DNA of 64,000 bases from positions 1-64,000 of the IMG/VR virus record IMGVR_UViG_2681813455_000010; one strand, given 5' to 3'. The notes under the pieces were generated by a model, which was not told the DNA's origin, ran no database searches, and saw nothing but the letters and a program-made list of their open reading frames with translations. Below, piece after piece: positions 2,224-48,963 of this stretch. Origin of the DNA: a virus (lineage: Duplodnaviria > Heunggongvirae > Uroviricota > Caudoviricetes). A program made the translations under genes and the position numbers. How positions within the stretch are numbered: position 1 is the first letter of the stretch; every line of letters begins with the position of its first letter.

Positions 2224-2348
2224 TGCTGTGCAGCAAAGGGACTATTGCTTTGTCCCTTTGCTGCGATTATCTGATTACGGTACAGGCTGGAACTTAGATT
2301 TTCCGGCGTTCACGATACTTCATGTAACACTCAGGTTGAGTAATCTTC

Positions 2349-2873
2349 ATGAGTTTTCTTTTGCCGTGTGGTGGAATTATGAATAATATAGATTTATTAA
2401 AAACTATAACAAACTACAAAAAAATCAAAAATCCGGCATACCCGGCTCAGGAGAGTCTGTTAATACACTTATATATTAGAGTAAATGACAAAATCCAGAG
2501 TATTATAGAAAATGAATTGAGCGAGTATAGAATAAACACTTCAACATTTATGGTGTTAGTTTCATTATATATGTCTGATGATTATTGTCAGTCCCCTTCT
2601 GATATTTACAAGGAGTTACAATTCTCCAAAACAAACATCACACACATCATAGACAAATTAGAAAAAAAGAATATTGCCAAAAGAATTAATAATAAAAACG
2701 ATCGTCGAAGCAAAAGTATTTGCTTAACCCCTGACGGAGTTACACTTGCTCAAAAACTAATAAACACTCAAAATGTAATGCTAAAGAAAATCTGGAGCGG
2801 GCTATCAGATGATGAAATGAAAACATTTGAACTCGCCAACAAAAAATTATTATCAAACCTTAATGTTAATTGA
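2349..2873 (+). CDS. MarR/SlyA-like winged-helix transcriptional regulator (alternative start ATG 2379)
   Basis: 174-aa ORF, very AT-rich; wing-like motif DRRSKSICLTPDG recalled from MarR family; no search run. Confidence 0.45.
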   Translation: MSFLLPCGGIMNNIDLLKTITNYKKIKNPAYPAQESLLIHLYIRVNDKIQSIIENELSEYRINTSTFMVLVSLYMSDDYCQSPSDIYKELQFSKTNITHIIDKLEKKNIAKRINNKNDRRSKSICLTPDGVTLAQKLINTQNVMLKKIWSGLSDDEMKTFELANKKLLSNLNVN

Positions 2874-3307
2874 TGTTAAAACATACTAACAGTCATCTTC
2901 TTACAATGTATTCTTCTGGAGAGAATAACTACCAGAATATATAAAGACATTAATCACACTCTCATTTAATTACAATGAGCATAAGAGCCACCAATGTTTA
3001 TGCTGGTTAGGCTTTATATAGGAAACAATAAAAAAACGTCATTAAACAAAGCGTTTTTAATGGCGTTGTTATTTAAAAGAAAGATATCAAATATAGATTA
3101 ACCCCCATCGAATAAAGATGTTGTCTAATCATACCTGAAGGTATTTATCACTAGAATTTTATTTGTATAAATGGACATATACCATTGGAAGATTTAGAAA
3201 AGCATGTCCAGGAGTTTAAGGACAAATCTCATACTGATTATCGGAAGCTTTTATCATTATATGATTACCAAGCATACAATGTATAATTATATACACTATT
3301 ATTGTGA

Positions 3308-3646
3308 TTATAATTTGTTACTGTGCCACTCAAGGGCAATATCTTTGAAGGTGTTGTTTAACTGCGTTTCCCGGGCAATCTTTTCCTCTCGCTTCACTTC
3401 CATCAGATCGATTCCCCCAGAGATACCTCTTTTAGCTTCTTCAAGTTTTGCAGGAGCATCAGCTAAGGTGACCTCAGGATACACACCTAGTGCTAACAGC
3501 TTCTCTTTACCAGCTACACGATACTTGAGACGCCAATATTCTCCTCCACCAGGTTTTACCAGGAGGTACAGACCACCACCATCAGCCAACTTGTAAGCCT
3601 TCTCTTTTGGCTTGGCAGTGTCTATTTGACGGGCATTGAGTTTCAC
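3308..3646 (-). pseudogene. N-terminal remnant (~112 aa) of a P4-type tyrosine integrase (arm-binding domain), truncated
   Basis: Translation ..AKPKEKAYKLADGGGLYLLVKPGGGEYWRLKYR.. matches the conserved N-terminal arm-binding domain pattern of P4-family integrases; ORF ends after 112 codons with no catalytic domain; adjacent to tRNA-derived repeat at 3810. Confidence 0.6.
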
Positions 3647-3809
3647 TTGGGGGTATCTCCACTAAACTGAACAGCAAATCCCCTCAATTGCTTGTAGAGT
3701 TTGGGGTACTTAAATAGACGTCAAAAGACTAAAAGGGGCATTAATATACTGATTATAAGAGGTTTTTAAATACTTGAGTAGACTTGGGGAGACGTTAGAA
3801 TGGTGCCGA

Positions 3810-3829
3810 TAATAGGAGTAAAACACTCG
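3810..3829. repeat. 20-bp direct repeat ATGGTGCCGATAATAGGAGT (reverse complement of tRNA-Thr 3' end incl. CCA); putative att site
   Basis: Identical 20-mer recurs at 16377-16396; flanks integrase-containing element. Confidence 0.65.
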
Positions 3830-3905
3830 ATTAATCTCGTGTTAATGCCATCACCTACGACCATTACTAATTGATTGAATCTTATAGAAAAAATCATCAT
3901 TTTCT

Positions 3906-5240
3906 ATGCGTTACAATCAATTTTCACATTACAAACGCTCCGACACTTTAGCCGGGGAGTTTATGAGATACAAGCCCAATCAATACATAATCTGTGATTC
4001 TTACGGTAACTACTATTTAAGGATCACGCTGCCTGTGTATATGCAGCCCTTTTTTGAAGGAAAAAGGACGTTTGTCAGGAGTCTGCACACAAGTAATCTT
4101 CGTGTTGCACGTAGAAAGCGTGATCAGATTGCAGATGAATACCATTGCTTACGGGAGAGTGTCGCCCCTGTAAACAGCACAATAGAGAACACGCTGGAAC
4201 TGTTACGCAGTAAGGCTAAATACGCCAAAACAGCTACCAGAATGCAAGATACAGCGTCTTCGTGTCCGTCATTGCTTAAAATTCTTGAAATCTACCTGAC
4301 AATTAACAGCACGAAGAAGAAGCCAGCCACTTTAGCTAAGGCAAGAAAAGCGGTAGAGATGTTTCTCTCCTACCGTAAAAAGCCTGATATTGCATTGCAA
4401 GATGTGAGCCGCACCACTGTTACAGGCTGGATTGAACACATGCAAAAAACCCTTTCACAACAATCAATTGCAAATTATATCAGCCCAATGGCCCAGCTAT
4501 GGGAGTTAGCTTCATCACGTTACCACGATGCGCCAGAAAGGGCGCTCTCCCCCTGGCGAGGGCATAGGCTTGATGTGGCACAAAGTAGAGAGAGCTACGA
4601 GGCATTTTCTAACAAAGAGCTATTGCAGGTGTTGCAAGTATTTTCCGGTAATTCAGCAGAAAACAAAGAAATGATGGCTTTGTGTCTTATCGGTGCTTAT
4701 ACAGGTATGCGGATCAATGAGATAGCAAGTCTCACAATAGACGATGTGAAAGAGATCGAAGGTGTGCTGTGTTTTGAAATCACACAGGGAAAAACGAAAG
4801 CTGCGGCGCGTGTTGTGCCTGTACATAGCCTTATCACTCCGTTGGTGTTGTCGCTGCGTGAAAAGCCTCATAATGGCTTTTTGTTCTATCACGCCAGCAT
4901 TACAGAGCGTGCTGATGGTAAACGTTCCACGTGGCACACGCAGAGATTTACAAGAGCTAAACGAAAGGCTTTAGGGGAAAAGGGAACAGAAAGGAAAGTG
5001 TTTCATTCTCTGAGACACGGAGTAGCACAGCTTCTTGATCGAAATCAAATTCCAGAAGACAGGATCGCCCTTCTCCTGGGCCATACACGCGGCAATACAG
5101 AGACATTCCGCACATATAGCAAGAATGCAGCTTCTCCAGTAGAGCTTAAAAACTATATTGAGCTTCTACGCTACCCTGAAATAGAGAAAGGCTTATCAAT
5201 CAATAAAAAATCAAATTTAAGGCGTAAAACAACGCCATAG
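3906..5240 (+). CDS. int: tyrosine-type site-specific integrase
   Basis: 444-aa ORF with ATG start; C-terminal catalytic pattern ..HSLRHGVAQLL..LLGHTRGNTETFRTYSK.. (R..H..R/H..Y) typical of tyrosine recombinases. Confidence 0.75.
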   Translation: MRYNQFSHYKRSDTLAGEFMRYKPNQYIICDSYGNYYLRITLPVYMQPFFEGKRTFVRSLHTSNLRVARRKRDQIADEYHCLRESVAPVNSTIENTLELLRSKAKYAKTATRMQDTASSCPSLLKILEIYLTINSTKKKPATLAKARKAVEMFLSYRKKPDIALQDVSRTTVTGWIEHMQKTLSQQSIANYISPMAQLWELASSRYHDAPERALSPWRGHRLDVAQSRESYEAFSNKELLQVLQVFSGNSAENKEMMALCLIGAYTGMRINEIASLTIDDVKEIEGVLCFEITQGKTKAAARVVPVHSLITPLVLSLREKPHNGFLFYHASITERADGKRSTWHTQRFTRAKRKALGEKGTERKVFHSLRHGVAQLLDRNQIPEDRIALLLGHTRGNTETFRTYSKNAASPVELKNYIELLRYPEIEKGLSINKKSNLRRKTTP

Positions 5241-5320
5241 ACGCAATAAAGAGGCTTCAACATAATTGGTAGCCTCTTTTATAATTACATCGTTACAGAG
5301 CGTTTTAGAGGCGTTTACGG

Positions 5321-6034
5321 CTATTCCTGTTTAAAGGCAGGCGTAATAGTGTCTTCACCTTCACTACTTGATTTTTCAGTGTTAACACGTTTTTTCATAT
5401 TAGCCCCGATGTTCTTAGATGGCTGTGTTTTGAGAGCTACAGTGTTTACAGTGCCATACGACACTAATCTGATTTGCTCAAATTCCAAATCAAATACCAG
5501 AGATTCGCTTGCTTCTTCTGTGTATTCGATGCCTGTTAAAACAACGTTCTCAAAAGTTTTATTTTCTGTAACAAGAAGAAAAGGCTGTCTACTGTCCATA
5601 ATCTGATTTAGATAATCAATCGCTAATGATCTTCTGTTCCCGTTCACCCCTGCACTCTTTAACAAGCCAGGATCGCTTTTAATCGGTGTTTCAGTGATCC
5701 TTCCTTTAAGAGAAAACTTATTGTTTTTAATTTGAACGTGATCAGACACAGTAGCACCATTTTCTACGGGGTAGCTTGTGACATCTGCCGAACGTCTCAC
5801 GTTCACATCGTCTACACTGTCAAAGGCCAGTGCCATATAATTTTCATAAACGTCATTGCCAGAAGATGCCAAGCCACTGGTAACAATAGCAAATCCGTTC
5901 TCTCCTTTTGTTTTATTAGCTTTGCTATTTTCGTTTTTTGTAGAGTTTATATCTTGTTCTGCTTTGTAAACAGCCTGAACGTGTTGTTCTGGAGTATTTG
6001 CTGCACGTATGGTTAAAATCCCGGCGGTCGCCAT
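5321..6034 (-). CDS. hypothetical protein (237 aa)
   Basis: ATG start with AAGGAAA Shine-Dalgarno; co-directional with neighbouring gene block. Confidence 0.45.
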   Translation of the reverse strand: MATAGILTIRAANTPEQHVQAVYKAEQDINSTKNENSKANKTKGENGFAIVTSGLASSGNDVYENYMALAFDSVDDVNVRRSADVTSYPVENGATVSDHVQIKNNKFSLKGRITETPIKSDPGLLKSAGVNGNRRSLAIDYLNQIMDSRQPFLLVTENKTFENVVLTGIEYTEEASESLVFDLEFEQIRLVSYGTVNTVALKTQPSKNIGANMKKRVNTEKSSSEGEDTITPAFKQE

Positions 6035-6067
6035 AATAATAATTTCCTTGTAATGTTATGGCGGGAA

Positions 6068-7897
6068 TTACCCGCCGTTGGATTGTCCTGATAAGCTGGT
6101 TAATGTTAATGATTTCAAGAAGCTATCCCGACTTGCTCTCGCTGTAAAATCCACATAATCGCTTAATCTGGATGTGTCAGAATTAATAGTAAGAGGAACC
6201 TCTGTTACCACTTCAAATGTAGGATTCAGATTAAACACAGGAGATAAATTATAAGCCGGAGTTGTCATTGCAAGATTATTTAAAGCACCCTGTTTGAGAT
6301 TGGTTATCGGTGCTTCGCTGACTGACATTTTTACATCTGACACAGAAGATTTATCATCGAAAAGCAATCCCTTAATCGTATTAAATAGAGAATGACTATT
6401 ATCAGGTGTAGTTGTTGCAGTGCCAGCGCCTTTATATTGATCAGGAACGAGATTAGAAAGATTCTGTTTCATTCCTTCATTGCTTAATGGCGGTGCATCT
6501 CCCATATTTTTCTGAATAGCTTCCGTCTTATCATCATTACGATTAAACCAGTTTACAATCTTCATAATAGCTTCAAAGAGACTTCCTGTAGCTTCTCCCA
6601 GCTTCGTAAAATACGGAGTGAGATTAGAAAGGTTTTTCATAAACTCTTCCGTTACTTTTGGATCAAGAGATTTCATAAAGCCGTCTACGAATGCTACTTG
6701 TCTTGCATCAGAAAGCTGTGAAAGCTGTCTGTTTAGTTCTCTGAATTTAACGATAGATTCTTGCTGTGTTTCTGTTAGCCATTTTCCAGAGGCTTTTTGC
6801 TGATTAATACTTTCTTGTACATCTTTAACGGAACGTTGCCAATATTTTGACGTAAGCATCAAATCATCGCCCAGGTCTTCTAAACGTTGTCCAATTTGGG
6901 AGTCTGAAAACCCTTTTTTCATCATTCCATTAACAGCCTTAGAAATTAATCCGGCTGGATTATCAGCAAATTTTTTAAGGTCGCTTTTGTTAATAACACC
7001 GATGTTTAGAAGTTCATTAATAGCGTTATCACCGCCTTTCCATTCAGATTTTCCGGTTTTCTTATCTTTCACCAATTCAGCTTCACTGTAGGATTTTGCG
7101 GCACGTTCCCTAACATCTTTCATCTGATCCAGGTATTTTCTAGCCCCTTGATCACCCATCATAGAGTCAACGCCGTTTCTATAGGCCCATTCTGTAATGT
7201 TATACATCTGGTTAACGTCTACACCGCCCAGCTTGGCACGTTGAATTAGCTCACCTTGCGTGTCAGCGTTAGCGAAGCTATTAGCCATAAATTCAGCGGT
7301 TTTGCTTGCAGCCATCACGCCAGCCGCCGCTGTAGCGCCTCCAAATAACAGAGCGCCCATAGTGGCGGAATTCCCTGATCCTCCCTTAACGGGGGCTAAT
7401 TGAGCTTTTCTGTTGCCATTAATCTTACGTTGTTGCTGTTGTAAGCGTTTCATCTGGCTATTCATACGTGCAAGCGAGATAGCCCCTTGCTCATATTGTT
7501 TCGCTATCTCTCTAGCCTGTGCAATAGCTTTATATTGTTCCGCTACAGAGAGGCGGTGCATTGCACTAATGCTTGATCCAACGTCTAAAAGCTTTAGTTC
7601 AGCTTTCTCCTTACGTGCTGCTATTTGTTGCTGTTGCCTTGCCTGTGCTCTTGCTGCGGCAGCTTGTGCTCTTTGATTCTGTTTTTCTGTTTTAGCTTTC
7701 TGTTGAGCAATCTTGTCTACTTCGCTTTGTGCTTTCTTATAGCCTTTAGTGACATTATCAAACCTCAGTTTAGCTGGCTTGATATTATCAGTGAATTCTT
7801 TTAGGCTTGTAATAGAGTCTTTCGCTTTTTTCAAGCTGTCTTTATCTACACTAAATGTAACTGTGTTCTTAATTTTAGAAGTGTTAATTTCTAACAT
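6068..7897 (-). CDS. hypothetical coiled-coil protein (609 aa) with Gln/Ala-rich helix and Gly/Ala-rich hydrophobic segment; tape-measure-like or scaffold-like (speculative)
   Basis: ATG start with AGGGGA SD; long heptad-like Q/A/R-rich stretch and GALLFGGATAAAGVMAAS segment. Confidence 0.5.
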   Translation of the reverse strand: MLEINTSKIKNTVTFSVDKDSLKKAKDSITSLKEFTDNIKPAKLRFDNVTKGYKKAQSEVDKIAQQKAKTEKQNQRAQAAAARAQARQQQQIAARKEKAELKLLDVGSSISAMHRLSVAEQYKAIAQAREIAKQYEQGAISLARMNSQMKRLQQQQRKINGNRKAQLAPVKGGSGNSATMGALLFGGATAAAGVMAASKTAEFMANSFANADTQGELIQRAKLGGVDVNQMYNITEWAYRNGVDSMMGDQGARKYLDQMKDVRERAAKSYSEAELVKDKKTGKSEWKGGDNAINELLNIGVINKSDLKKFADNPAGLISKAVNGMMKKGFSDSQIGQRLEDLGDDLMLTSKYWQRSVKDVQESINQQKASGKWLTETQQESIVKFRELNRQLSQLSDARQVAFVDGFMKSLDPKVTEEFMKNLSNLTPYFTKLGEATGSLFEAIMKIVNWFNRNDDKTEAIQKNMGDAPPLSNEGMKQNLSNLVPDQYKGAGTATTTPDNSHSLFNTIKGLLFDDKSSVSDVKMSVSEAPITNLKQGALNNLAMTTPAYNLSPVFNLNPTFEVVTEVPLTINSDTSRLSDYVDFTARASRDSFLKSLTLTSLSGQSNGG

Positions 7898-7911
7898 TTA
7901 AAATCCCCTTA

Positions 7912-8115
7912 TTAATCATTTTTATCACCTTCTTTACTTAAGAAATGGTGTAGAGCCTGATCAATACTCTCGTTTAATCTGAACATACGGGCTTTTACTC
8001 CTTCATATGGAACATCTAAAAGAGAACAGAGATATTTCAGATTTAACAAGCCTCTAGAATCATTAGCATCTAGATGTACGTGCACACCATTTTTTGATTT
8101 CAAAATCACTTCCAT
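7912..8115 (-). CDS. hypothetical protein (67 aa)
   Basis: Short ORF tightly packed between neighbouring minus-strand genes. Confidence 0.35.
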   Translation of the reverse strand: MEVILKSKNGVHVHLDANDSRGLLNLKYLCSLLDVPYEGVKARMFRLNESIDQALHHFLSKEGDKND

Positions 8116-8201
8116 ATTTTAATCACCTCTCAAAATTTAAAAATAAATAAAAAAAAGGCGAAGCGTGAATACACGCCACGCCTCTATTACACGTTAAAAT
8201 A

Positions 8202-9230
8202 TTATTTAACAGTGATTTGAACGGAGAAGCCTACACCGTGGTTTACAACCATCTGGCTATTCTCTGTAACAACGTTAACAGCATCACCACGAGAAGATTC
8301 ATAGCTGTAGCTATAGACCTCAGTAGGGGCGGCATTGATCAGTTCAAAGGTGCTGGAAGCAGCCCCGTAGATGTTCTGATATACGTTAGAGCCTTTAGCG
8401 AATTTAGGCACAGCTACAGCGTCTGCGGTCATATGTGCCAGGTGTAGCGGATCTACCAGTTTAATAACATCAATGTTAGTTCCTGGAATAGTGAACGCTG
8501 TCACTCCTGGCAGCAGGTCACGACGCTGATACACAACGTTCCCTTCTTCCAGTGGGCTTACATACTGGAATGCGTTTGCCATACCAGCAGAGAATCGAAT
8601 TGCAGAGAAGGCGTCAGGTTTACAGAAAACAACAATACGCTCTACAGCAGCCGCCTGACTCTGTGCTTTTTCAATAATATCAGTAGCAATCTGATCAAAT
8701 TCTTTAAAAATCTTCGTGGTGTCAGTGCTGGAAGCGTTCACAGTGGCTTTCATAGCTGATACGTTAAACAGCTTGCCCCACTCAATTAACACATCATCAG
8801 TTTTCGGTGTGTAAGTTTTACCGCTAAACAGAGATGCAGCTAGCACGCTCTCTTTTGTACGCTGATACGCTACGTGATGTTTTGCAACATAGTCAGCATA
8901 GATATCAGTGAGTGTTTCCTGAAAATCAGTGCCAGGCTTACGCTTGCCTTGAACATCAGAAGGACGGATCACATCTTCACGAAGAAAATACGGGATTTCA
9001 ATCAGCCATTCTTTACCTTGTTCTCGCTTAGTAACATTGTGTTCAGAAGAGAAACGAGAGGTTTCTTTGTTGAACAGAGATTCGTTGCTTTCGACAAGCT
9101 GGGAAACAGCTACTTTATGAGATGTAACCCCTACAGAATCCGTAAAATCAAGAGTAGAAAGCAGATAGTTTCTAGTGCTATGCGCAGAGAACAGAGGAGC
9201 TAAATCAACGTAATCATTACCTAGAATCAT
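8202..9230 (-). CDS. hypothetical protein (342 aa); possible major capsid protein of lambda gpE-like family (weak, pattern-based)
   Basis: ATG start with AAGGA SD; size and C-terminal half pattern (..RIVVFCKPDAFSAIRF.., ..VVY..) loosely resemble lambda gpE; no search run. Confidence 0.5.
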   Translation of the reverse strand: MILGNDYVDLAPLFSAHSTRNYLLSTLDFTDSVGVTSHKVAVSQLVESNESLFNKETSRFSSEHNVTKREQGKEWLIEIPYFLREDVIRPSDVQGKRKPGTDFQETLTDIYADYVAKHHVAYQRTKESVLAASLFSGKTYTPKTDDVLIEWGKLFNVSAMKATVNASSTDTTKIFKEFDQIATDIIEKAQSQAAAVERIVVFCKPDAFSAIRFSAGMANAFQYVSPLEEGNVVYQRRDLLPGVTAFTIPGTNIDVIKLVDPLHLAHMTADAVAVPKFAKGSNVYQNIYGAASSTFELINAAPTEVYSYSYESSRGDAVNVVTENSQMVVNHGVGFSVQITVK

Positions 9231-9248
9231 TTATTATTATTCCTTTTA

Positions 9249-9611
9249 TTAAGAAGTGAAAACCGTATTAAAGCCTTCAAGCTGGAAGCCTTTTTTAATT
9301 AATGCTGTTTTTGCTGCTTCACTTACAGCATTCAGGGCATCAGCTTTAATGCACACAAGGCCAGCATTGCTACGTAGCACATCTACAGGCTTGTTTTCTC
9401 CTGCCGTTACAAATTCACTCATAACAACATAGATATCATCTCCTGATTCATATTTAGCGCCCGTGCTTGTGATCAAGTCGCCACACTCAACATCAGCAGG
9501 AAGAGAAGCAAAAACCTTGCTTTCTACAGAGGCAAACGGATCAGTACAATAACTTACAATATCTGTGAAAGTCTTTCTAACTGGAAACAGAGTGTCTAAA
9601 TCAATAATCAT
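9249..9611 (-). CDS. hypothetical protein (120 aa); possible head decoration-like protein (position-based guess)
   Basis: ATG start with AAGGAGA SD; immediately upstream of capsid-like gene. Confidence 0.4.
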   Translation of the reverse strand: MIIDLDTLFPVRKTFTDIVSYCTDPFASVESKVFASLPADVECGDLITSTGAKYESGDDIYVVMSEFVTAGENKPVDVLRSNAGLVCIKADALNAVSEAAKTALIKKGFQLEGFNTVFTS

Positions 9612-9820
9612 TTAGTAATCTCCTTAGCTTTTAATTTGATTAATTCATTAAGGGAAGGTGTAGACGGAGAAGAAGGAGAAAAATATTTTTCAACACATCT
9701 TTCTACTTCCTCTACAGAACACCCAGCGTATTTAGCTACCATTTCGGTAATTTGTGGATTAATTTTCAGCATTTCATCTTTATACTTGATGATTTGCTCT
9801 TTATCATTTAAGAACAACAT
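9608..9820 (-). CDS. hypothetical protein (70 aa)
   Basis: ATG start, 4-bp overlap with downstream gene (coupling). Confidence 0.4.
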   Translation of the reverse strand: MLFLNDKEQIIKYKDEMLKINPQITEMVAKYAGCSVEEVERCVEKYFSPSSPSTPSLNELIKLKAKEITK

Positions 9821-10169
9821 TTATATAAACCTTGTTACCTTGTTTAAAGTAAGAAATACAACTTTTAAGTTGCATAACGGGCAAAATAAAAGGCAGCATT
9901 TAGAGCCGCCTTTTATTAACTTGTACCTATGTAATTACCCTATGTTATGCATACTCCAAGATGTATGCATAACAAAGGAAAAAAGAGGTAATAATGACAC
10001 AGTATTACTTAAGGAGGAGAAGCGGGGAGCGGAGATTTTACTCCCCTTTAACGACAAGAAGAATTTTTAATATCGAACCAATAAAGGAAAAATAATCACC
10101 CCTATATAATTATATTAACATACAATAGATGAAATGTCAAGATATTTTACAACTTTTTTGTTGCTTTTT

Positions 10170-10538
10170 TTATTCTTCTGTGATAGTAGCGCCTAAGCGT
10201 TGAGCTAGTTCAACAAGGCCATCTCCCACATAGCGAACATCAGATTCAATATCTTCTATCCAGTTTGAGAGACTCCATATCTGATCCGCTGTCAGATATG
10301 CGTTCTCACGCTTACAGAGCATCTCTACACGCTTAGAGAGGTGCTCAAAGGCATTCACAGCTAAATCCCAGTGTTTAAACGCCTCATTGAGTGCCGCTGG
10401 CGTGTTTTCTCTGTATGCTTCAAGTTCAGCACGGTTTAAAGGCAGGAGGTAATCATCCTCATAATAATTAATTAGTGAGTAAATTGTGTCATACGTGTTT
10501 TTGTTCATATTAAAAGTCTCCATAGTGATCAGCACCAT
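10170..10538 (-). CDS. hypothetical protein (122 aa)
   Basis: ORF in co-directional block; overlaps upstream gene end. Confidence 0.4.
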   Translation of the reverse strand: MVLITMETFNMNKNTYDTIYSLINYYEDDYLLPLNRAELEAYRENTPAALNEAFKHWDLAVNAFEHLSKRVEMLCKRENAYLTADQIWSLSNWIEDIESDVRYVGDGLVELAQRLGATITEE

Positions 10539-10920
10539 CTAAAATTTGGAATTCAGGGACTAAATTATTTAGGCCATTGGTGGCGAGATAACCGACGTAG
10601 TGATTATAATCTTCAAATCCTAAAATCTGGTATTTGCGTAAATCAGAGCTATCAACGATATACTCTTTTCTTTTTCTAGGTTTCCAGAATACGCCAGGTG
10701 TTGAAGATAAGATTTCTTGTAAGGCGTTAAATTCATCTCCACAAGGCACAGAGGGAGAATGTTCTATGATCTCTGTTTTCCATTCGCCAGGGGCGCTATT
10801 TTGCTTGGTGAGCGTAACTAGCTCTTTAAAGTCTTTACGTCTTAGAATAGATTTAGGTTTACTTAGAAGAGAAGCTGAATCACCGATTTTCTTAACAACG
10901 TTGTTTTTTCTTTTTGCCAT
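10510..10920 (-). CDS. hypothetical protein (136 aa), basic N-terminus
   Basis: ORF in co-directional block. Confidence 0.4.
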   Translation of the reverse strand: MAKRKNNVVKKIGDSASLLSKPKSILRRKDFKELVTLTKQNSAPGEWKTEIIEHSPSVPCGDEFNALQEILSSTPGVFWKPRKRKEYIVDSSDLRKYQILGFEDYNHYVGYLATNGLNNLVPEFQILDGADHYGDF

Positions 10921-11052
10921 TATTTACTTTTCCTTTTCTTTTAAAGGAAAACACCCCGAAATATGCTTCTAACGTGATAAAGAACAATAACCAATACATA
11001 GCTACTATCATAATAATGTTTTCCTTTTATATTTTAATTACATAGAGAGATT

Positions 11053-11331
11053 TTAGAGAGTGGAATAGATGAAGTCTATTTCTTTATCCAGTCTTTTGAG
11101 ATTGAATGTAGAGAAAGATAATTCTTTAATCTCTATAACACCGAAATTTGATAGCTGTCTAAGCCAGAATTTTAAACCATCTTCAGAGCACCCTGCTCGA
11201 TGTAACACATCGCTATATTTTAGCGGTGTTGGCTTTCCTTTATAGAGGTAAGCAAGTGTTTCATAGATGCGTTTTCCTGTGTCATTACACTGAATTCTGT
11301 CTACTTGATTTTTTACTAAATATTGAATCAT
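11053..11331 (-). CDS. hypothetical small DNA-binding-like protein (92 aa)
   Basis: ORF in co-directional block; helix-turn-helix-like middle segment (guess). Confidence 0.35.
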   Translation of the reverse strand: MIQYLVKNQVDRIQCNDTGKRIYETLAYLYKGKPTPLKYSDVLHRAGCSEDGLKFWLRQLSNFGVIEIKELSFSTFNLKRLDKEIDFIYSTL

Positions 11332-11342
11332 AACCCTCCTTA

Positions 11343-12035
11343 TTAAAATGGAATATCAAAGTCTTCATATACTTTGGGATGTTTCTTAGCAAAATATGCC
11401 TCAATACCATTTGGTCGTTTTAGCCCGTATCTACAAGCTAGTGAATTTGCAAACTCAATAAATGATGCCCCTGCTGTTCTGGTATTCTTCTGCTGGCAGA
11501 TAAGAGAGGCAAAATTCTCTAACACATCCTCCTCATTATCATTAGCTACCTTTTCATTTGATGAAACAGGTGTTTCTTCCGTCTCCCACGGCAAAGGCGT
11601 ATCCCAATCATCATCAAGAACATCAAAAGAAGGCTGTTTATGGCCTTTAGGTTGTTCCTGTGCTTCTTCTGCCTCAGAAAGATCAGAGAGTGATGATTCT
11701 CCTGGGGGAGTAATATGTGCATCTGTGAGAGGGAGAGCATTGTAAATCAAAGATGAAATATACGGATCAGGATGTGGGGATGTTTCTAATAATCCCATCT
11801 CTTTAAGATCGTTTATCTTACGTTTAATTGTTGACGATGAAGACTTAAAAATCTTAGCTAATGTTTCGTGACTTTCATAACAATTAAGGTTGTTTTCCTG
11901 ATAACTAAGGAATCGAAAATAAAGCACAATATGTAATAGATCTAAATCTTTTCCTTGAGGGAATTTATCAGAATAAATCTTTGATACATTATCAAACGTG
12001 TCATAGTGTTTTGTAAAAGTTAGTTGATTAATCAT
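11343..12035 (-). CDS. hypothetical protein (230 aa) with N-terminal winged-helix-like segment and acidic linker; candidate replication or regulatory protein
   Basis: ATG start with AAGGAGA SD; ..ETLAKIFKSSSSTIKRKINDLKEMGLLE.. resembles wHTH. Confidence 0.45.
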   Translation of the reverse strand: MINQLTFTKHYDTFDNVSKIYSDKFPQGKDLDLLHIVLYFRFLSYQENNLNCYESHETLAKIFKSSSSTIKRKINDLKEMGLLETSPHPDPYISSLIYNALPLTDAHITPPGESSLSDLSEAEEAQEQPKGHKQPSFDVLDDDWDTPLPWETEETPVSSNEKVANDNEEDVLENFASLICQQKNTRTAGASFIEFANSLACRYGLKRPNGIEAYFAKKHPKVYEDFDIPF

Positions 12036-12086
12036 TAAAAATCTCCTTATAAATCACGCTTAATGCGCTACTAAAGTGAATGAGGA

Positions 12087-12254
12087 TCACTTACCCTTTT
12101 TTTGTTTGATGTTCTCTGCTGCTTCAGTAATGATTTCTAACATCAAATCACTGACCATAATTTGCCTTTTCTTGGCTTCAGCAAATAAAACCTTGAAGAT
12201 TTCAGGGTCAACGTGTAGGTAAGTGCGCGGAATTGGTTTCTTAGTTTCGCTCAT
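12087..12254 (-). CDS. small ribbon-helix-helix-like protein (55 aa)
   Basis: ATG 12254 with AGGAG SD; translation MSETKKPIPRTYLHVDPEIFKVLFAEAKKRQIMVSDLMLEIITEAAENIKQKKGK; below ORF-track cutoff, found by eye. Confidence 0.4.
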   Translation of the reverse strand: MSETKKPIPRTYLHVDPEIFKVLFAEAKKRQIMVSDLMLEIITEAAENIKQKKGK

Positions 12255-12273
12255 AGTTTTCTCCTTCTATTCT

Positions 12274-12462
12274 TTACTCTGTTTCAGATTCTTTTTCATT
12301 TTTTCTTAGTTCATCAATAATCTTGAGTGCTTCATTGAAGCAAGCTGCTCGTTCTGGATAACCTCGACTCCTTGCCATATTACGATTCATTACTACTTGA
12401 TGGCGTGTAAGCTCACCTTTTTTAAATGCCTGGATGACGTGCTCAGGTGTAAACCATTTCAT
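12274..12462 (-). CDS. hypothetical protein (62 aa)
   Basis: Short ORF adjacent to RHH gene. Confidence 0.3.
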   Translation of the reverse strand: MKWFTPEHVIQAFKKGELTRHQVVMNRNMARSRGYPERAACFNEALKIIDELRKNEKESETE

Positions 12463-13221
12463 AAAAAACTCCTTATTCAGTTAAAAGAAAAACACCTTGC
12501 AAGCCTGACGGCTTCAAAGTGCATTGATTTTGATTATTTAGAGAAGAATGTTTTTCTGTCCCTCTAATACCTATTATTACATATAAAGAAACATTTGTCA
12601 ATACCTTTTCACAAAAAATCTGATCTTTTTCATGCACTTACATTTTTTCTTAGCAATTCGTGCTCTTCTGTGTAGTGCTATTCTTCATTATTGTCTAAAA
12701 CGCTCTAAAACGCGTTCTAACGAGATTTTGATAAAAGCAATACATTCCCTTATGTAATGGCTGTTTAGCTCGCCAGAGGCTTATTTAAGGGGCTTATTTT
12801 GTATTTGTTAGGTATATGAAAAGGTAATGGTAGATATAAGATAGAGAGTCACTTTATAAAACGCTCTGTAAAGCCCTGTAGTGAGCTTATATATGTAGGC
12901 AATGCGTTTCCATTCCCTACCCTGCTTAATGCTGTTAGAGAAGCATTTAGACCCCTTATTTTTAATTAATTAAAGTATCCTCTATACATTCCTGTTATGA
13001 AACACCTCTGAATCCTTCATAAAACACATTATGACGCAAAGAACACTTTTCTAAGGTGATTCCCTTTCTGAACTCTGTTTCTTGCGTCAAAGAGCTACAC
13101 AGAGTTTATAAAGCTATTATTAATAATAAAGTAGATAAAGTAAGTAAGATAACTAAGATAGATAAGATTAATAAGATCAGAATTCTCTTTCGGTGTCGCC
13201 TCTGGCTTTTCCACCGAAAAC

Positions 13222-13384
13222 AATTACACGACTACAGAATGTAGGAAGTGGAATTGTATTGAGGCTTAGTGAAATTACACGAGGAAAGCAGAGTGTAATT
13301 GAGCTTTAGCCGCTCTCTCTTCGAGTAATTACACAACTACAGAGAATAACGAGAGTTATTAAGTGTAGGAGGGTAATTACGAGG
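13222..13384. repeat. cluster of 4-5 AATTACAC(G/A)A-containing repeats (two 17-bp near-identical copies at 13222-13238 and 13327-13343)
   Basis: Read directly: aattacacgactacaga / aattacacgagg / aattacacaactacaga / aattacgagg. Confidence 0.6.
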
Positions 13385-13620
13385 TAGAGAGATAGAGTTA
13401 ACACATAAGCAATCTATGATTGGTTAGGTGATTACTCTTCTGCGCACAGCGCAATAGTATTTCTTCGTGGGCGTTACCGCCAACGATAGTTACACGAAGA
13501 AAGTAACGCTTTGCTTTCGGTGTGAGCGGAACGGGCCAGCCAACGTAGCCCGAAAGGTAGCGGAGTAAGGCTGCTTGCCAGAGAGTGAAGCTAACGCCGG
13601 AAGGCAAAAGATCATATATA

Positions 13621-13821
13621 TATATAGATATAAAGAATATTATTATTATGATCTAATTAATAATCTAATATAGTTTTATTAATAGTCTTATTGTAGTTCA
13701 CAGTGACCTACCCCCTAGCTCACTATGACCTACCCCCTAGCTCATAGTGAACTACCCCCCTAGTTCACAGTGACCTACCCCCTAGGTCACAGTGACCTAT
13801 ATAGATATAAAGAATATTATT
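13621..13821. repeat. iteron array: ~4.5 tandem 22-bp repeats (TCACAGTGACCTACCCCCTAGC type, 13698-13800) bracketed by 24-bp AT-rich direct repeats (13621-13644 and 13798-13821); putative plasmid-type replication origin
   Basis: Tandem near-identical 22-mers read directly; flanking TATATAGATATAAAGAATATTATT duplicated; extra iteron copy near 13975-13990. Confidence 0.7.
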
Positions 13822-13872
13822 TAATTATTATTTAATTATTCTTATTAACTTATTCTTATCGGGTATCAGTTT

Positions 13873-13957
13873 TGATAGGGGTAGGGGTATCAATATTGAT
13901 AGGGGTATCATCGGTTTATTATTCTTTATAAACCCCTGTTAGACTTGATAGGGGTAA
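13873..13957. repeat. three to four TGATAGGGGTA repeats
   Basis: ttgataggggta recurring at ~13873, ~13896, ~13946. Confidence 0.55.
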
Positions 13958-14644
13958 CAGAATTCTGTGGGGGTAGCTCACAGTGACCTACCGTTACTAC
14001 CAACTTTCTTACAGAGAGCATTTCAGATAGCTGAATGTAACCTCTCGTTACATCCATTTGTCACATAGCACTCTGTGTAATGCCTTTCTATGTGTGTGCC
14101 ATAATCCCCCCTATATTCCCTGTGTAAATCATAGAATATCCCTAACTTATTCCTGTGTAATTCCATACTAAAAATTAAATGAAAAGTAGCTTAAAAGTGC
14201 AATTCTTACTTTCTTCACTTTTACATCACTTTCGCAAAGCCTTGTGTAGTGCGGCTTACAGAGCACTATCAGAAATTGTTGGCTAAAAAATGTTCTGCTT
14301 GTTTCTTAATGAGTTCTCTCGTTTGTGCAAATTTTAAAATTTATTTTGTTTTTACAGCCTTATTTCGTGTAATGCGTGGCATAGCAAGCCCTTTTCTTGT
14401 GTTGTCAAGACATTTGGCAACGTTCAAACATCTGTTTAGAAATGCCAAATTGTTGATCTAACAAATAAACCTGTATAAACAGAACACCATTTAATCTATC
14501 CCCCTGTGTATCCATTAGGCATACCAAATGAATACAGTTAAATCGTGTAATATTCCGTACCTATAAGGCTTGAAACAGACCAAATGAATACGGTATACTC
14601 ATTTGCATTGAAGTAGTGCCAAATCGATACATTAAGGGGCTTTT

Positions 14645-15184
14645 ATGAGCAATATCGGTTATAAGCGTGTGAGCACTGTAGATCAGAACACTGATCGCCA
14701 GCTTGCAGGAGTAACTCTCGATAAAGTCTTTGAAGATAAGCTGTCTGGTAAAGACACTAACCGTCCAGGCTTACAAGCGTGTTTAGCCTATCTGAGAGAA
14801 GGCGACACCTTACACGTGCACTCTCTCGACCGTTTAGGACGTAACACCTTAGACATCCTTGCTTTAGTTGAACAACTTAATAATCGAGGTGTGATTGTTC
14901 GATTTCACAAAGAAGGGATCATTGCAGACATTACAAGCGCGATGGGAAAAATGATGCTTACTATGTTGTCGGCAGTGGCAACGTGTGAACGTGAACTGAT
15001 GCTAGAACGTAAACGAGAAGCGCAAGCCGTCAATCCTACAAAGCGTGGTAAAGGTAAAGCAGTAGATAGAGAAGGTATAAAGAAAGCCCTTTCTGATGGC
15101 GTGTCAGTGCGTAAAACCGCCGAGATCTTTAATGTTGCTCCTTCAACGGTGCAACGTATCAAGAAGGAAGAAGAGGAGGCGTAA
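14645..15184 (+). CDS. serine recombinase (resolvase/invertase family)
   Basis: 179 aa; N-terminal YKRVSTVDQ motif with catalytic Ser, C-terminal HTH; ATG start. Confidence 0.8.
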   Translation: MSNIGYKRVSTVDQNTDRQLAGVTLDKVFEDKLSGKDTNRPGLQACLAYLREGDTLHVHSLDRLGRNTLDILALVEQLNNRGVIVRFHKEGIIADITSAMGKMMLTMLSAVATCERELMLERKREAQAVNPTKRGKGKAVDREGIKKALSDGVSVRKTAEIFNVAPSTVQRIKKEEEEA

Positions 15185-16376
15185 TGCCTCCTTGATATTT
15201 GGGGATTCTGGATTTTCCAGATCGGGGGGCGCTGAAAATCGCGTTAAGCACCTCTCGCAATCTAGCCATAAGGGAGGGGATATAGGTATTAAGATGTATT
15301 TATAGCTATTTATGGCTATTTATTTTTTATTTACCTTTATTTAAAAATAACCTTATAAATCAATAAGATACAGAACTATCTGTTTATATTTTAACCAATT
15401 AAATCAAGTTTAATACCCTTAAATAACCTGAAAATAGCCTTAAATACCCCAATAATTAATTTTAAGGCTTTCCGTGTTCTCTCCTGCATTATGAAAATGC
15501 AAAATAAGGCACAAAACAAGCTCACAGACGCATTAAACACACATCACCTATACATCCCTATACCAAGCAATGAAAACAGCGTTAGAATGCGTCCTGTTGC
15601 GCTCTGGAGATTTTCAGAAATCCTCTCTAAGCCATTTCAACTCACTAAGGAGTTTTCTTTCTTCGTTCTCTCGTTGCTTTCGCTCTAGCCAGGCTTTTCC
15701 TTCTGGCGTAGACAGGAACTTACGAGCGTGAATCTTGCGGTTATTCCGTTTGATAGCTGCAATGTTTTTCATCGTGTGCCTCTGTATTCATATGAAAATT
15801 AACAAGTTACATACTACACAGGGAGACTACGCATAAAACACAATACAAGTAAAGATACATTTTCAAGACAATAGGAGCCATAAAGCGCCTTTGATGGTTA
15901 TACCAAAAAATAAGCGCCGTAGGCGTATCCACTAAAAAGGGCTTTTTCACAAAAGCTATGAAGTCTTAGCAGTTCTTCTCTTATCAGGCACCCGTTGTAC
16001 TCCGGTGGACGAAACCGTGCTAGAGCTTGATTCTTTCCCGATCAAGTTAGGTTTTGAAGAGGTGGGCTTTAATCCACTATTGCACTTAAAACTCTTCCCA
16101 TCATTTAGCCTGTTTATCCTCTGCAACGTCTCACGACGTGTAGCATCATTGGACACCGCGCCAGGTGTGGAACATCTTGCTAAGAGTTTTGGTAGAAGGT
16201 TTAGAGACGGTGGCACGTCTTCCAGCTTCAAAGGAACTTGTTACGAGGTTGAGCCTGGGAACTACTCGCCCATACGTGTTACACTACCAAAGCCCATAAC
16301 AACGTATAGGCGTTTGTAAGTGATAACAGAAGATACAATTTCTTAGAGAAGTTAAGCTAAGTTATTGATTTTCTTG

Positions 16377-16396
16377 ATGGTGCCGATAATAGGAGT
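16377..16396. repeat. second copy of 20-bp direct repeat ATGGTGCCGATAATAGGAGT (att)
   Basis: Identical to 3810-3829. Confidence 0.65.
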
Positions 16397-16422
16397 CGAA
16401 CCTACGACCTTCGCATTACGAA
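16378..16422 (-). tRNA. tRNA-Thr (anticodon CGU, thrW-like) 3' 45-nt fragment (anticodon loop to CCA); not a complete gene
   Basis: Reverse complement TTCGTAATGCGAAGGTCGTAGGTTCGACTCCTATTATCGGCACCA has a T-arm (GTAGG/TTCGACT/CCTAT), acceptor 3' strand and CCA; sequence beyond 16422 cannot pair as acceptor/D-arm. Confidence 0.6.
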
Positions 16423-16761
16423 TTATAAGAATCCGTTTCTAATTCAAAGAATTACCCCATAAACACTGCGCTCACACGTCCCACCACATCAAAACATGTA
16501 AAGCCTTGCAAGCCATTGTGAGGCCTTATGTGTCTCAGTTTTGTCCCACCTTGTATTACGACTTGCATAGCCGATGAAGATAAACGCGACGACAAACGGC
16601 GCAGCAGTCTTCCTTTCTTTCACGACTTCCCCATCCCAAGCATGCATACCTTTCCGCCATAACTGTAGTGAATGTCTGTTATGAGCGAATTGAGGACGTA
16701 ACACTAGCAATTGCTGCTGGTTTGGAGCGTAGCAGAAAACCAGTTCGACAAAATTCGGTTG

Positions 16762-17802
16762 TTAGGCCTTTTTTAAGTACTCTCTCTGAATATTATTTGT
16801 AAGTTCAATTCTGTTAATCTCATTTGGGGTAAAAACCAAATTAACAAAACCCGCTTGTGCAGCGTGTAATTCCCCAGTATTTTCTATTTTCCCCTGCGAT
16901 TTTAACTCATATTCTAATGCATGGATGAGCTGTACCAATTTTTTACCCCTAGAAGTGAGTGGTGCCATAAAAGATGGCTGTCTATAACGATCATACCATT
17001 CAATCATGCATTCAGAAAAATCAATATCAGCTATATGTTGATGCACGATGAACTTTATATACTCAAACAAAAAATTTTGTTCTGAATCACCGACTCCGAT
17101 TCCAAAAGGTAAATTTTGATTATCCATTTCAATTTCTGCTATTCCTAATGCCATATCCATACCAAAATATAAAGATCGTCCGGCATTAGTTAGGCCAGTA
17201 CAGAAAAGATTGAAATATGAGACAGGAAATGAAGCATTGTTACTCTCAGTCTTAATCAAATAGTCTAGGATAGCTTCGACAGACATGATGTCTTGATCTA
17301 AAATCGCAAATCCTTCAAAGAGTTTTTTAGCACTGGTCAATTGCAAGACATTTGATTTGGGTATGGTAATACCCTTTGCATCAGTTGTCTTGGAAACTCT
17401 TAATGCATGGCGAACATCTTGCCAATAACTTAAATTTGTTTCTGGGTTGTGAATAATAATAAGCACAGGCAATGGAAATCTTTCCCAGTAAAATCGATGC
17501 TTCTCTTCCGGGTAGAAAATCCAATATCCATTACTTTCCTTAAAAAAGGACACCCCTGACTTTATTTGAACGGCTATTATCCTTCCTGTAGCAAAACCCT
17601 CGGGACTGACATACTCAATCTGACCATCAATTCCAACGTCAGCCATCGGAGTTTCACGCCAAATCTGGCCAATTTTGGCCATTGCTTCCGCTACAGCATT
17701 TACACCCAATCTTTCTTGAGAATTAGTCTGGTTATATTTTGGGAAATTCATATTTTTTCTCAATCGCATGACACTGGCAACATTTCCTTCAAAATCTGGC
17801 AC
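16762..17802 (-). CDS. DUF4365-like (restriction-endonuclease-fold) N-terminal domain protein with unknown C-terminal domain; candidate defence protein. Start uncertain (GTG 17802, ATG 17769 or 17751)
   Basis: N-terminus ..ERLGVNAVAEAMAKIGQIWRETPMADVGIDGQIEYV..IAVQIKSG.. matches recalled DUF4365 pattern with D...E.K-like residues; AT-rich. Confidence 0.45.
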   Translation of the reverse strand: MPDFEGNVASVMRLRKNMNFPKYNQTNSQERLGVNAVAEAMAKIGQIWRETPMADVGIDGQIEYVSPEGFATGRIIAVQIKSGVSFFKESNGYWIFYPEEKHRFYWERFPLPVLIIIHNPETNLSYWQDVRHALRVSKTTDAKGITIPKSNVLQLTSAKKLFEGFAILDQDIMSVEAILDYLIKTESNNASFPVSYFNLFCTGLTNAGRSLYFGMDMALGIAEIEMDNQNLPFGIGVGDSEQNFLFEYIKFIVHQHIADIDFSECMIEWYDRYRQPSFMAPLTSRGKKLVQLIHALEYELKSQGKIENTGELHAAQAGFVNLVFTPNEINRIELTNNIQREYLKKA

Positions 17803-18050
17803 GAAATTTCGCCAGAAATTTAAGTTTAGGTTTGTGGCCCATTGCTGACTTTCAATAGGTTTCTACTCAAACAAAGAAAACAATCCAAACAACCCGGTAC
17901 TGTCTATTTTTGAGTGTTCGAAAATCAACTCATAGTTATTGACTATTTATTTCTCCAGTGATTTTGTAACTTTTTTGGGGCACTGTAAAGTCACATCAGA
18001 CGAAGATTGTTCGTTTTTGGCATAGGGCTGCTGTTGCAACCCTGACAACC

Positions 18051-18341
18051 TTAGACTTCAACCGATTCAGAGATCTCTAACGCATCATCAACTTCAATGC
18101 CCAGATAACGGACTGTGCTTTCCAGTTTCTTATGGCCCAACAGAAGTTGGATCACCCAGAGATTCTTGGTTTTCTTGTAGATCAGGTAAGGTTTTGTTTT
18201 TCTCATGGAATGTGTGCTGTAAAGCGAATCTTCGAGACCAAGCTTTTCTACCCACCCATGAAAGATTCGGTTGTATTGCCGGGTTGATATGTGCCGATTA
18301 GTTCCGATCCGAGACCGGAACAAGAAGTCTTTACTATGCAA
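18051..18341 (-). pseudogene. C-terminal remnant (~96 aa) of a tyrosine recombinase/integrase
   Basis: ..HSMRKT..LLGHKKLESTVRYLG.. = conserved H-x-x-R / LLGH / Y catalytic box; no N-terminal domain upstream. Confidence 0.6.
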
Positions 18342-18376
18342 ATTAACAGGCTGTATACACAGCCTGTTAATTTATG

Positions 18377-19516
18377 CTAGAGCTTATAAAGCTCAGTTAA
18401 TCTAGCTTTTTCTTTGGCAAATTCTTCATCAAGGTTCGAGAAGTCTGGAAGTGTAACCATTAAATCCTTAAGTTGATGAATAACATTCCAGGCATCGTAA
18501 TGAATAAAGGGGTTTAAGCCAATAACGTTTCCCTCATCATTATTTTTAGATTTTCCTACACCACATAATTTGATGAATTTGTTGATTGCAGTTGTTTCAT
18601 TCCAGTCAGAAACAAAAAGAAGCAAGGCAGAAACAGCCAAAAGGGGATTGTTTTTTTTAACAGCGGATAAGCTCCTGATCTTTCTGAAAAGAAACTCGTG
18701 ATGTCTAGTTATTTTTTGTGCTATCCTTATCGTTGCTTCATATTTATCTTTAAGCAACCTTCTATCATAAACCTGATAACCTCGATCTCGTGCTACTAAT
18801 CGATATGCTTGTTTAGTAAATGTGGTGCTATTCACAAGATTATAGAAAATAGCATTATTCTTATTGGTCATATCGATCATCAATGATGGGTATTTGAATC
18901 TTAAAGAACGATAAACTTCATCGTTTATATCAAACCAAGATTTATTTTTTCTCTCTTCAGTGACAATATATGTATCTTCTCCTTTGCGGGAATACATGCT
19001 GGCTCTTACTAGATTGATCATGTGAGGGCTGTAGTTAACAGAAAAAGTGCCTGATTGGCGTAATTCAGTAAACCACCGTCGCATGTTTCTAATATCTTCC
19101 TGATTGAACTCTTCATGTTCAATACCTCTACATACAAGCTCTCGAATTATACTTGTAATCTCAGAGTCGGAAGTGCCTAATTTTATAAAACCATCCTTTG
19201 AAGAATCTATTTGTTTATCATCCCCATTGTAATGATCGCAAAATATTTTGTGCGCGTCTGTTCCGTCTTTTGTTCTAAACGAAAAATGAGATTGGCTAAC
19301 TATTTTATTTGTTGTTTTCGAATAACCTTCTGAAACAACAATTGCACCGCTTACATTACAAATTGGGCACTCTGCATCAAACGCAACAAATTCCTTGAAA
19401 TCACTAAAATTAAGTACGTTATTTGATAAATAAAGGTTTAGCAATTGAACTATGTCCAATTCCTTTTTGAATGTACGAGAATAGACCGTAATTGCCATTT
19501 GCACTCCCTTCGTCAT
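18377..19516 (-). CDS. hypothetical protein (373-379 aa); probable start ATG 19498 (AAGGGAG SD)
   Basis: Long AT-rich ORF with good SD; no recognisable family by eye. Confidence 0.5.
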   Translation of the reverse strand: MTKGVQMAITVYSRTFKKELDIVQLLNLYLSNNVLNFSDFKEFVAFDAECPICNVSGAIVVSEGYSKTTNKIVSQSHFSFRTKDGTDAHKIFCDHYNGDDKQIDSSKDGFIKLGTSDSEITSIIRELVCRGIEHEEFNQEDIRNMRRWFTELRQSGTFSVNYSPHMINLVRASMYSRKGEDTYIVTEERKNKSWFDINDEVYRSLRFKYPSLMIDMTNKNNAIFYNLVNSTTFTKQAYRLVARDRGYQVYDRRLLKDKYEATIRIAQKITRHHEFLFRKIRSLSAVKKNNPLLAVSALLLFVSDWNETTAINKFIKLCGVGKSKNNDEGNVIGLNPFIHYDAWNVIHQLKDLMVTLPDFSNLDEEFAKEKARLTELYKL

Positions 19517-48550: not shown

Positions 48551-48747
48551 GATTGTGGTGCTTTTTGTGGTAGTTACCCACTTACGCACTTTGTATTGCT
48601 ATGCCAGCAGTTAGCTTCTACTGTAAAACTATTCATGCAGCAAACCTGCACTTCACCACAAAATGGGATTCAATACCCACAACTCTATCTGCATCTCTAC
48701 TCAGGCATCAGCCTTCTTCGTTATCGTATACAGACAAGCTATGAATT

Positions 48748-48963
48748 TTAATCAGTAATAATGACATTTGCTGCTGCAGGACCTTTAGCACCACTCTCTA
48801 CAGAGAAGGTAACCTTTTGGCCTTCAAATAAGGTTCGATAATTATCATTCTGAATTGCAGAAAAATGCACAAACACATCTTTACTACCATCAACAGGAGA
48901 AATAAAGCCAAAACCTTTATCAGCGTTAAACCATTTTACTAAACCAGTCATTTTATTTGACAT
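48748..48963 (-). CDS. cold-shock protein (CspA family) carried in prophage late region
   Basis: [38 protein letters not shown].. canonical cold-shock domain with RNP motifs. Confidence 0.9.

Follow-up and report, generated by a model that had tools for sequence, protein, structure and literature searches.

A tandem array of integrated elements at the tRNA-Thr gene thrW of Escherichia coli SF-468

The tRNA-Thr gene thrW of E. coli is a recognised hotspot, and reviews give a 20-kb island with 41% GC at this gene in strains APEC O1 and UM146. We analyzed a stretch of 64,000 nt (the window) that is identical to positions 3893616-3957615 of the E. coli blood isolate SF-468 (NZ_CP012625.1) and that ends just short of thrW. 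From left to right, the window contains the remainder of an island with the toxin gene vat (the vat island, or E1), an element that we call E2 (3820-16376, 12.56 kb) and a lambdoid prophage that continues past the right edge. We conclude with high confidence that the region is a tandem array produced by serial site-specific integration into one tRNA gene, thrW (tRNA-Thr CGU, minus strand).

Several described systems share features with this locus. In the O157:H7 strain Sakai, the same thrW beside proA is occupied by two unrelated integrative elements in tandem, Sp1 and Sp2, with yagP as the chromosomal flank. These are a lambda-like element with a P22/DLP12-type integrase gene (int) next to thrW, then a P4-like element. 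Sakai has neither the vat island nor E2, and it has two layers, versus three in our window and a fourth remnant outside it. Sp2, a true P4-like element at the same locus, carries the P4 hallmark genes whereas E2 does not. In CP4-6, a cryptic prophage of K-12, as in E2, the integrase gene lies at the end far from thrW and has its N-terminus by a partial thrW 3' end (49 nt, intF). CP4-6 differs by the length of this scar (49 nt versus 19 nt in E2), by its size (34 kb) and by its unrelated content. K-12 IntF was rejected as an orthologue of the E2 integrase, with 24% identity over a short stretch.

The VAT pathogenicity island (VAT-PAI) of avian pathogenic E. coli (APEC) was reportedly described by Parreira and Gyles in 2003 (cited in PMC7545054). 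The VAT-PAI, or PAI-APECO1-thrW, lies at the same locus between proA/thrW and yagU and carries the same vat and MarR genes; unlike it, SF-468 also has a prophage. The Shigella phages SfII, SfIV, SfV and SfX and the Salmonella phage P22 use thrW as well, and they have in common with the SF-468 prophage an SfIV/P22-type Int, a 46-nt tRNA core and an arm of the phage attachment site (attP). The SF-468 prophage differs from these phages by a lambda-like body (head, tail, J) and by defence-type cargo (dCTP deaminase, DUF4365) in place of the gtr O-antigen genes.

The array is recognised by its repeats. The 20-mer ATGGTGCCGATAATAGGAGT, which is the reverse complement of the tRNA-Thr(CGU) 3' end (the tRNA sense strand is the minus strand), has two exact copies in the window, at 3800-3819 and 16377-16396. 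No third site was found in the window with up to 3 mismatches, and 100 dinucleotide-preserving shuffles of the window gave 0 matches. An earlier interpretation of this DNA, made without database searches (the sequence-only reading), had placed the second copy correctly and the first at 3810-3829, 10 bases off. It had also seen that the second copy extends into the 3' half of tRNA-Thr(CGU), for which it gave 45 nt; we find 46. Repeat A (3800-3819, minus strand) consists of 19 nt of the thrW 3' end (3801-3819) and one trailer base. Repeat B (16377-16423, minus strand) consists of a longer piece of the thrW 3' end, 46 nt that reach from the anticodon loop to CCA (16378-16423), and the same trailer base. 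Both tRNA-segment repeats (19+1 nt and 46+1 nt) sit at element boundaries, where none is expected by chance.

Repeat A is the distal attachment (att) site of E2 and marks the junction between E2 and the vat island. Repeat B serves the prophage as its distal att site, and the first 20 bp of this repeat double as the proximal att site of E2. Because the 46-nt scar includes the whole 20-mer, E2 still lies between perfect direct repeats; its integrase gene is intact. Neither copy is a complete tRNA, as had been claimed: ARAGORN found none in the 64-kb window, and a search of the window and its left flank for other tRNA fragments (up to 3 mismatches) returned just the two known sites. The intact tRNA-Thr presumed to lie past the right edge is indeed there when the sequence is extended rightward. 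It occupies 3958099-3958174 of NZ_CP012625.1 (window-equivalent 64484-64559), 484 bp beyond the edge, and is followed by proA and proB.

In the RefSeq annotation of SF-468, the order on the plus strand is ykgJ, yagU, a 144-bp integrase remnant, IS1, vat (frameshifted), a MarR regulator, an Arm-DNA-binding integrase remnant, repeat A, E2, repeat B, the lambdoid prophage, tRNA-Thr, proA and proB. Each of the three elements of the window has an integrase gene adjoining an att site. The E2 int lies 144 bp from repeat A, the end of the prophage int lies 14 bp from thrW, and the vat-island remnant begins some 150 bp from repeat A. Of the prophage integrase gene, the window contains the first 216 codons (63351-64000, plus strand; the gene ends at window-equivalent 64469). 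Over the full length the protein shows 99.7% identity to SfIV Int and 89.5% to P22 Int, and the available SfII Int fragment is matched at 100%, which bears out its previous assignment to the P22 type. Repeat B is identical to the core of the SfIV attP, and the sequence next to it (16424-16546) is an SfIV-type attP arm with 3 mismatches in 123 positions, after which the two diverge. Since repeat B and these 123 bp match the SfIV attP, repeat B is the distal att site of the prophage, and the prophage extends from 16424 to the tRNA (~48.1 kb). Its P22-family integrase and its attP core, made of the 3' 46 nt of thrW with the matching arm, are the two features by which we count it as P22/SfIV-type.

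How could such an array be built? We propose that the attP of each newcomer would carry the tRNA segment that runs from the crossover point of its integrase to the 3' end. Integration would rebuild a whole thrW beside proA, and the displaced 3' segment would stay at the far end of the element. The next element would then enter the rebuilt tRNA and push the earlier ones outward. From old to new, the order of arrival would be a P22/SfIV-type prophage (of which ~150 bp of int are left), the vat island, E2 and the lambdoid prophage. Read in the light of established knowledge of tRNA-targeting integrases, the scars of ~13 nt (P4-type island), 19 nt (E2) and 46 nt (SfIV/P22 type) would correspond to three crossover positions in one tRNA. 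The SfIV/P22-type enzyme would cross over in the anticodon loop and the E2 enzyme within the last 19 nt, in the T-loop or the acceptor stem. The repeats, the intact tRNA, the integrase types, the attP arm and the occupancy states in other genomes (see below) are observations; the time order and the crossover positions are inferred, and E2 and the prophage may still be able to excise. The predicted attP junction of an excised E2 is …GATTTTCTTG-ATGGTGCCGATAATAGGAGT-AAAACACTCG….

The occupancy of thrW in other genomes bears directly on this proposal. In many genomes thrW is followed by the vat island without E2, and the vat-island match stops exactly at 3819 and runs into an intact tRNA-Thr. APEC O1 has the order thrW-E2-20-mer-vat island. 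Strain 20KM2762 has proA-thrW-E2-20-mer-yagP'-paoD and nothing else at the site. Of 5426 complete genomes, only 4 have the complete SF-468 layout, a rarity consistent with the prophage having come last. The elements are present or absent independently among strains and the break points are the repeats. Because all the intermediate states exist with break points at the repeats, the array arose by serial site-specific integration. The view that at least three elements are stacked at one tRNA stands: the 12.5-kb segment is discrete, bounded by the 20-mers, and seen with and without its neighbours.

The same genomes bear on another explanation, in which the 20 kb from thrW to vat would be a single pathogenicity island gained as one block, the internal 20-mer being a relic without a boundary role. 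Reviews do give one island of this size and of 41% GC for APEC O1 and UM146, and the G+C content is similarly low over 2000-20000. Nevertheless, E2 is found without the vat island, the vat island is found without E2 with a match that stops exactly at the 20-mer, and E2 relatives reside in srsR and at a tRNA-Gly gene. We regard acquisition as one block as highly improbable; the published 20-kb VAT-PAI is two elements, E2 and the vat module. A separate observation concerns strain JMF1 (locus L005, 24018-24129), where the annotation makes the thrW fragment by E2 a 112-nt "tRNA-Ser"; the fragment adjoins another integrase as well as conjugation genes. This junction is probably a chimera with an element that resembles an integrative and conjugative element.

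We also considered whether an additional element separates E2 from the prophage. The att-adjacent cargo region of the prophage (16762-22221) occupies the slot where SfIV carries its gtr genes. It encodes a DUF4365 nuclease-like protein (16762-17802, minus strand; Pfam), a tyrosine recombinase C-terminal fragment (18051-18341, minus strand; Pfam), a phrog_12525 protein (18377-19516, minus strand; PHROG) and a dCTP-deaminase-type defence protein of 592 aa (20443-22221, plus strand; PADLOC dCTPase 5.3e-127). PADLOC also gave a match to Aga_REase (8.5e-22) in this cargo. The segment 16424-19600, with DUF4365, the recombinase fragment and a 379-aa protein, might be a fourth element of its own. It holds a piece of a tyrosine recombinase, the matching prophage arm in Rb-50, at a non-thrW site, begins only at 19607, and JMF1 has the 379-aa gene beside an E2 copy. 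However, no extra tRNA fragment or repeat was detected from 16423 to the prophage, repeat B is immediately followed by the SfIV attP arm, and the content of the slot varies among related prophages, with gtr genes in SfIV and different cargo in Z247. A fourth element at this position is thus unlikely, and we read the 3 kb that separate the 46-nt fragment from the tail genes of the prophage as its cargo.

The older layers lie to the left of repeat A. The sequence-only reading had postulated an older element there, represented by the N-terminal remnant of an integrase; this element is the vat island, and the remnant is of the P4 type. It encodes 112 aa (3308-3646, minus strand; Pfam Arm-DNA-bind_3 9.3e-24), is annotated without a C-terminus and is oriented like the tRNA. 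Full-length relatives of this integrase adjoin thrW in other genomes. Since only the first 112 codons are left, the vat island is no longer mobile by itself. The island also contains a MarR-family regulator (2349-2873, plus strand; Pfam MarR 1.6e-09 and annotation) and, as cargo, the 3' part of vat, which encodes the vacuolating autotransporter toxin (1-2223, plus strand; RefSeq annotation and list of open reading frames). The vat gene is annotated as frameshifted in SF-468 and is intact in APEC O1. The vat island is the oldest element inside the window.

A still older trace is found outside the window, beside yagU (locus L001, 1446-1615, ~3.4-3.6 kb left of the window start). This sequence is the 3' end (150 bp) of a P22/SfIV-type int with its trailer, and by a hand count on the alignment it is ~93% identical to the int end of the live prophage. 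It is followed by a degenerate thrW end of ~13 nt with a 5-nt gap, which is visible by alignment alone. The int remnant is the scar of a fourth, oldest prophage. The genes yagP-paoABCD, which strains without the vat island possess, are missing in SF-468; they were lost in the same deletion as the rest of the oldest prophage.

Three observations weigh against simple serial integration. First, the distal scar of the vat island is the degenerate ~13-nt sequence with its 5-nt gap. Second, searches of IMG/VR, JGI metagenome contigs and complete E. coli genomes revealed no attP junction of an excised E2. Three long matches to the attP query in complete genomes were rejected, as they proved to be E2 beside P22-type int remnants and not attP. 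Third, the recombinase fragment at 18051-18341 in the prophage cargo points to some rearrangement beyond simple stacking.

The tyrosine integrase gene of E2 (3963-5240, plus strand; 425 aa, or 444 aa from an alternative start at 3906; Pfam Phage_integrase 2.9e-17, DUF6538 and SAM_5) is transcribed away from repeat A into the element, and other E2 copies encode integrases with 97-98% identity. Between repeat A and int, the integrase-proximal arm (3820-3871) contains at 3852-3871 a degenerate copy of the next tRNA segment (ACCTACGAC-----CATTACtAAT). Its local alignment score is 24, versus a maximum of 23 in 2000 shuffles. The degenerate copy is separated from the 20-mer by 32 unrelated bases, reaches the anticodon loop and stops where the P22-type identity stops. 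The arm is the same in the E2-only strain 20KM2762, whereas the srsR-integrated variant has another sequence in its place. The degenerate copy suggests that the attP of E2 formerly had the same 46-nt segment as the P22-type phages.

Downstream of int, E2 encodes several further proteins. On the minus strand these are a Dit-like tail protein, or tail tube initiator (5321-6034; Pfam Dit_like 3.7e-29), a tape-measure-like protein of 609 aa (6068-7897; phrog_16051 1.1e-53), a gpE-like major capsid protein homologue of 342 aa (8202-9230; Pfam Phage_cap_E 8.5e-15), a winged-helix replication-initiator-like (rep-like) protein (11343-12035; PHROG replication-initiator families 1.6e-09) and a 55-aa protein, read by eye as a ribbon-helix-helix protein (12087-12254). 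A serine recombinase of the DNA-invertase/resolvase type is encoded on the plus strand (14645-15184; Pfam Resolvase 6.4e-34, phrog_125 DNA invertase 2.2e-55). The region 12500-16376 (3.9 kb) has few open reading frames. It contains an iteron array with AT-rich flanks (13693-13992; Tandem Repeats Finder score 133-154), made of five tandem 22-bp units, TAGCTCACAGTGACCTACCCCC, and one more at 13973. A second repeated motif, GGGTATCAnnnTTGATAGGGGTA, lies beside the iterons at 13861-13956. The iteron array is probably the E2 replication origin. Rfam revealed no tRNA-like or other RNA family over 12300-16450.

We compared E2 with known satellites. When 10 main E2 proteins were searched against Pfam and 16 against PHROG, no terminase, portal, protease, tail tube or primase gene was found in E2, and none of the P4 hallmarks psu, delta, sid, alpA and alpha primase/helicase had a match. 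A phage-inducible chromosomal island (PICI) is characterised by int, an alpA or stl regulator and a primase-replicase; capsid-forming PICIs (cf-PICIs) add portal, protease, head-tail adaptors and the small and large terminase. E2 was rejected as a PICI or cf-PICI, as only int and the capsid homologue are present. Like the cf-PICIs, E2 encodes its own capsid protein homologue. E2 resembles the PLE satellites of Vibrio cholerae, which act on phage ICP1, and the PICMI satellites in its size (12-13 kb), its integrase, a replication module of its own, the lack of a terminase and sequence links to a single lytic phage lineage. There is no sequence relationship between E2 and the hallmark genes of PLE, PICMI, PICI or P4. 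We know of no described satellite family with tape-measure and Dit homologues. In PADLOC, no model matched the Dit-like, tape-measure-like, capsid, invertase or 136-aa proteins of E2, and the matches of the rep-like protein were weak and confined to regulator-type models (CasR, Csa3).

Is E2 still a functional element? It could be an inert, decaying prophage remnant whose repeats are historical scars with no present function. The lack of terminase, portal, protease and tail tube genes, the 3.9 kb poor in open reading frames from 12500 to 16376 and the failure to find an excised form in public contigs or genomes would all fit. Other observations argue against this. Of 5426 complete E. coli genomes, 270 have the core of E2 and 713 have parts of it. 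E2 relatives use three att sites, at thrW, inside srsR and beside a tRNA-Gly gene, the relative at the last site having a different integrase (only 32% identical). In a thrW variant from O104:H4, gene order is kept and the open reading frames are intact despite strong divergence (identities of 19% for the capsid homologue, 33% for the rep-like protein and 63% for the tape-measure protein). Moreover, the region poor in open reading frames is where the iteron array and a conserved phage-like element (see below) reside. We therefore find the inert remnant doubtful; the pattern of E2 appears to be that of a maintained mobile family and not of a decaying remnant.

The srsR copies show that closely related E2 integrases use distinct targets. 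In NCTC10973 (locus L007), E2 is inserted in srsR, a LysR gene, between 52-bp direct repeats (3919-3970 and 16309-16360). The srsR-type integrase is 97% identical to the thrW type, with 14 substitutions that map mostly to residues 161-209, and the thrW and srsR targets have only C-N-GATAA in common. The thrW/srsR pair exemplifies integrase retargeting in nature.

The closest relatives of the E2 genes are found in large virulent myoviruses of the Stephanstirmvirinae (Justusliebigvirus and Phapecoctavirus, ~147 kb; phi92/phAPEC8-like). The Dit-like protein has 59-62% identity to its counterpart in Justusliebigvirus and Phapecoctavirus, the tail tube initiator. The tape-measure-like protein is 34-36% identical to the tape measures of these phages, and the gene order is as in phiWec188. 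The capsid homologue aligns with the phiWec188 capsid protein at 22% identity over the full length (E = 3e-09). The winged-helix protein is a homologue of the phage protein muut_154. The 55-aa protein is 100% identical to muut_153, and the DNA at 12028-12266 (239 bp) is 99.6% identical to phage muut.

E2 and the Stephanstirmvirinae also have a non-coding element in common (15193-15266, plus strand), with a first block TGATATTTGRG and a second block CTGAAAATCGCGTTAAGCACCTCTCGCAA. Over 46 bp it is 95.7% identical to the sequence of ~40 phages, one of which is a Klebsiella phage. Most of the E2-family members checked have the element. An exact 32-mer of it occurs in eight IMG/VR loci and in four other copies of the family, taken from complete genomes; in the O104:H4 variant the element is diverged and lacks the exact 32-mer. 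An exact 23-mer occurs in one contig among species-representative genomes, a count that is uninformative on the spread outside E. coli. In phage BME3 the element lies inside a 342-bp repeat that its authors annotated as a direct terminal repeat, and another paper reports direct terminal repeats at the ends of Stephanstirmvirinae genomes. The arrangement of the BME3 record is odd, with two copies 861 bp apart. In PD06 the element lies upstream of a homologue of phi92 gp001. We take the terminal location as a lead, not as a fact. Folding gave no significant structure (z-scores of -1.2 and -0.8). As there is neither an RNA family nor a significant fold, we treat the element as a DNA site and not as an RNA. 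A promoter scan around it was uninformative. The shared element is a candidate packaging or regulatory site.

From the five protein homologues and the shared non-coding element, which lend indirect support, we tentatively raise the possibility that E2 is the first member of a family, so far undescribed, of satellites or anti-phage islands in E. coli directed against the Stephanstirmvirinae (phi92-like and phAPEC8-like phages), an idea we hold with less than even confidence. E2 would excise by its own integrase and replicate from the iteron origin through its phage-related winged-helix initiator. It would be recognised through its copy of the conserved sequence from the region annotated as the phage terminal repeat. 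With capsid, tape-measure and tail-initiator variants of its own, E2 would assemble particles fitted to 12.5 kb and in this way interfere with the phage. This reading would explain why the 55-aa protein is 100% identical to that of phage muut. In the literature, we found no description of satellites of these phages.

The remainder of the window is the prophage body (22900-63350). In the RefSeq annotation it is lambdoid, with tail fibres, J, tape measure, head, terminase, lysis, Q, O/P-like replication, cI/cro-like and exo/bet/gam genes. Rfam detected a cspA thermoregulator (156 bits) at 48732-49124 on the minus strand, upstream of a cspB-like cold-shock gene borne by the prophage.

Stacking at thrW is an already known process at a known hotspot, and the array represents no new kind of event. 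Its value for annotation is that the VAT-PAI is split in two, that the vat module is immobile and that the newest layer is a lambdoid prophage with an SfIV integrase and defence genes. The two 97%-identical E2 integrases that act on unrelated att sites, thrW and srsR, offer a natural example of retargeting. If the satellite proposal is true, E2 may offer a system in E. coli for studying satellites of strictly lytic phages. This would be relevant to phage therapy against extraintestinal pathogenic E. coli (ExPEC) and APEC, where phi92/phAPEC8-like phages are candidate agents.

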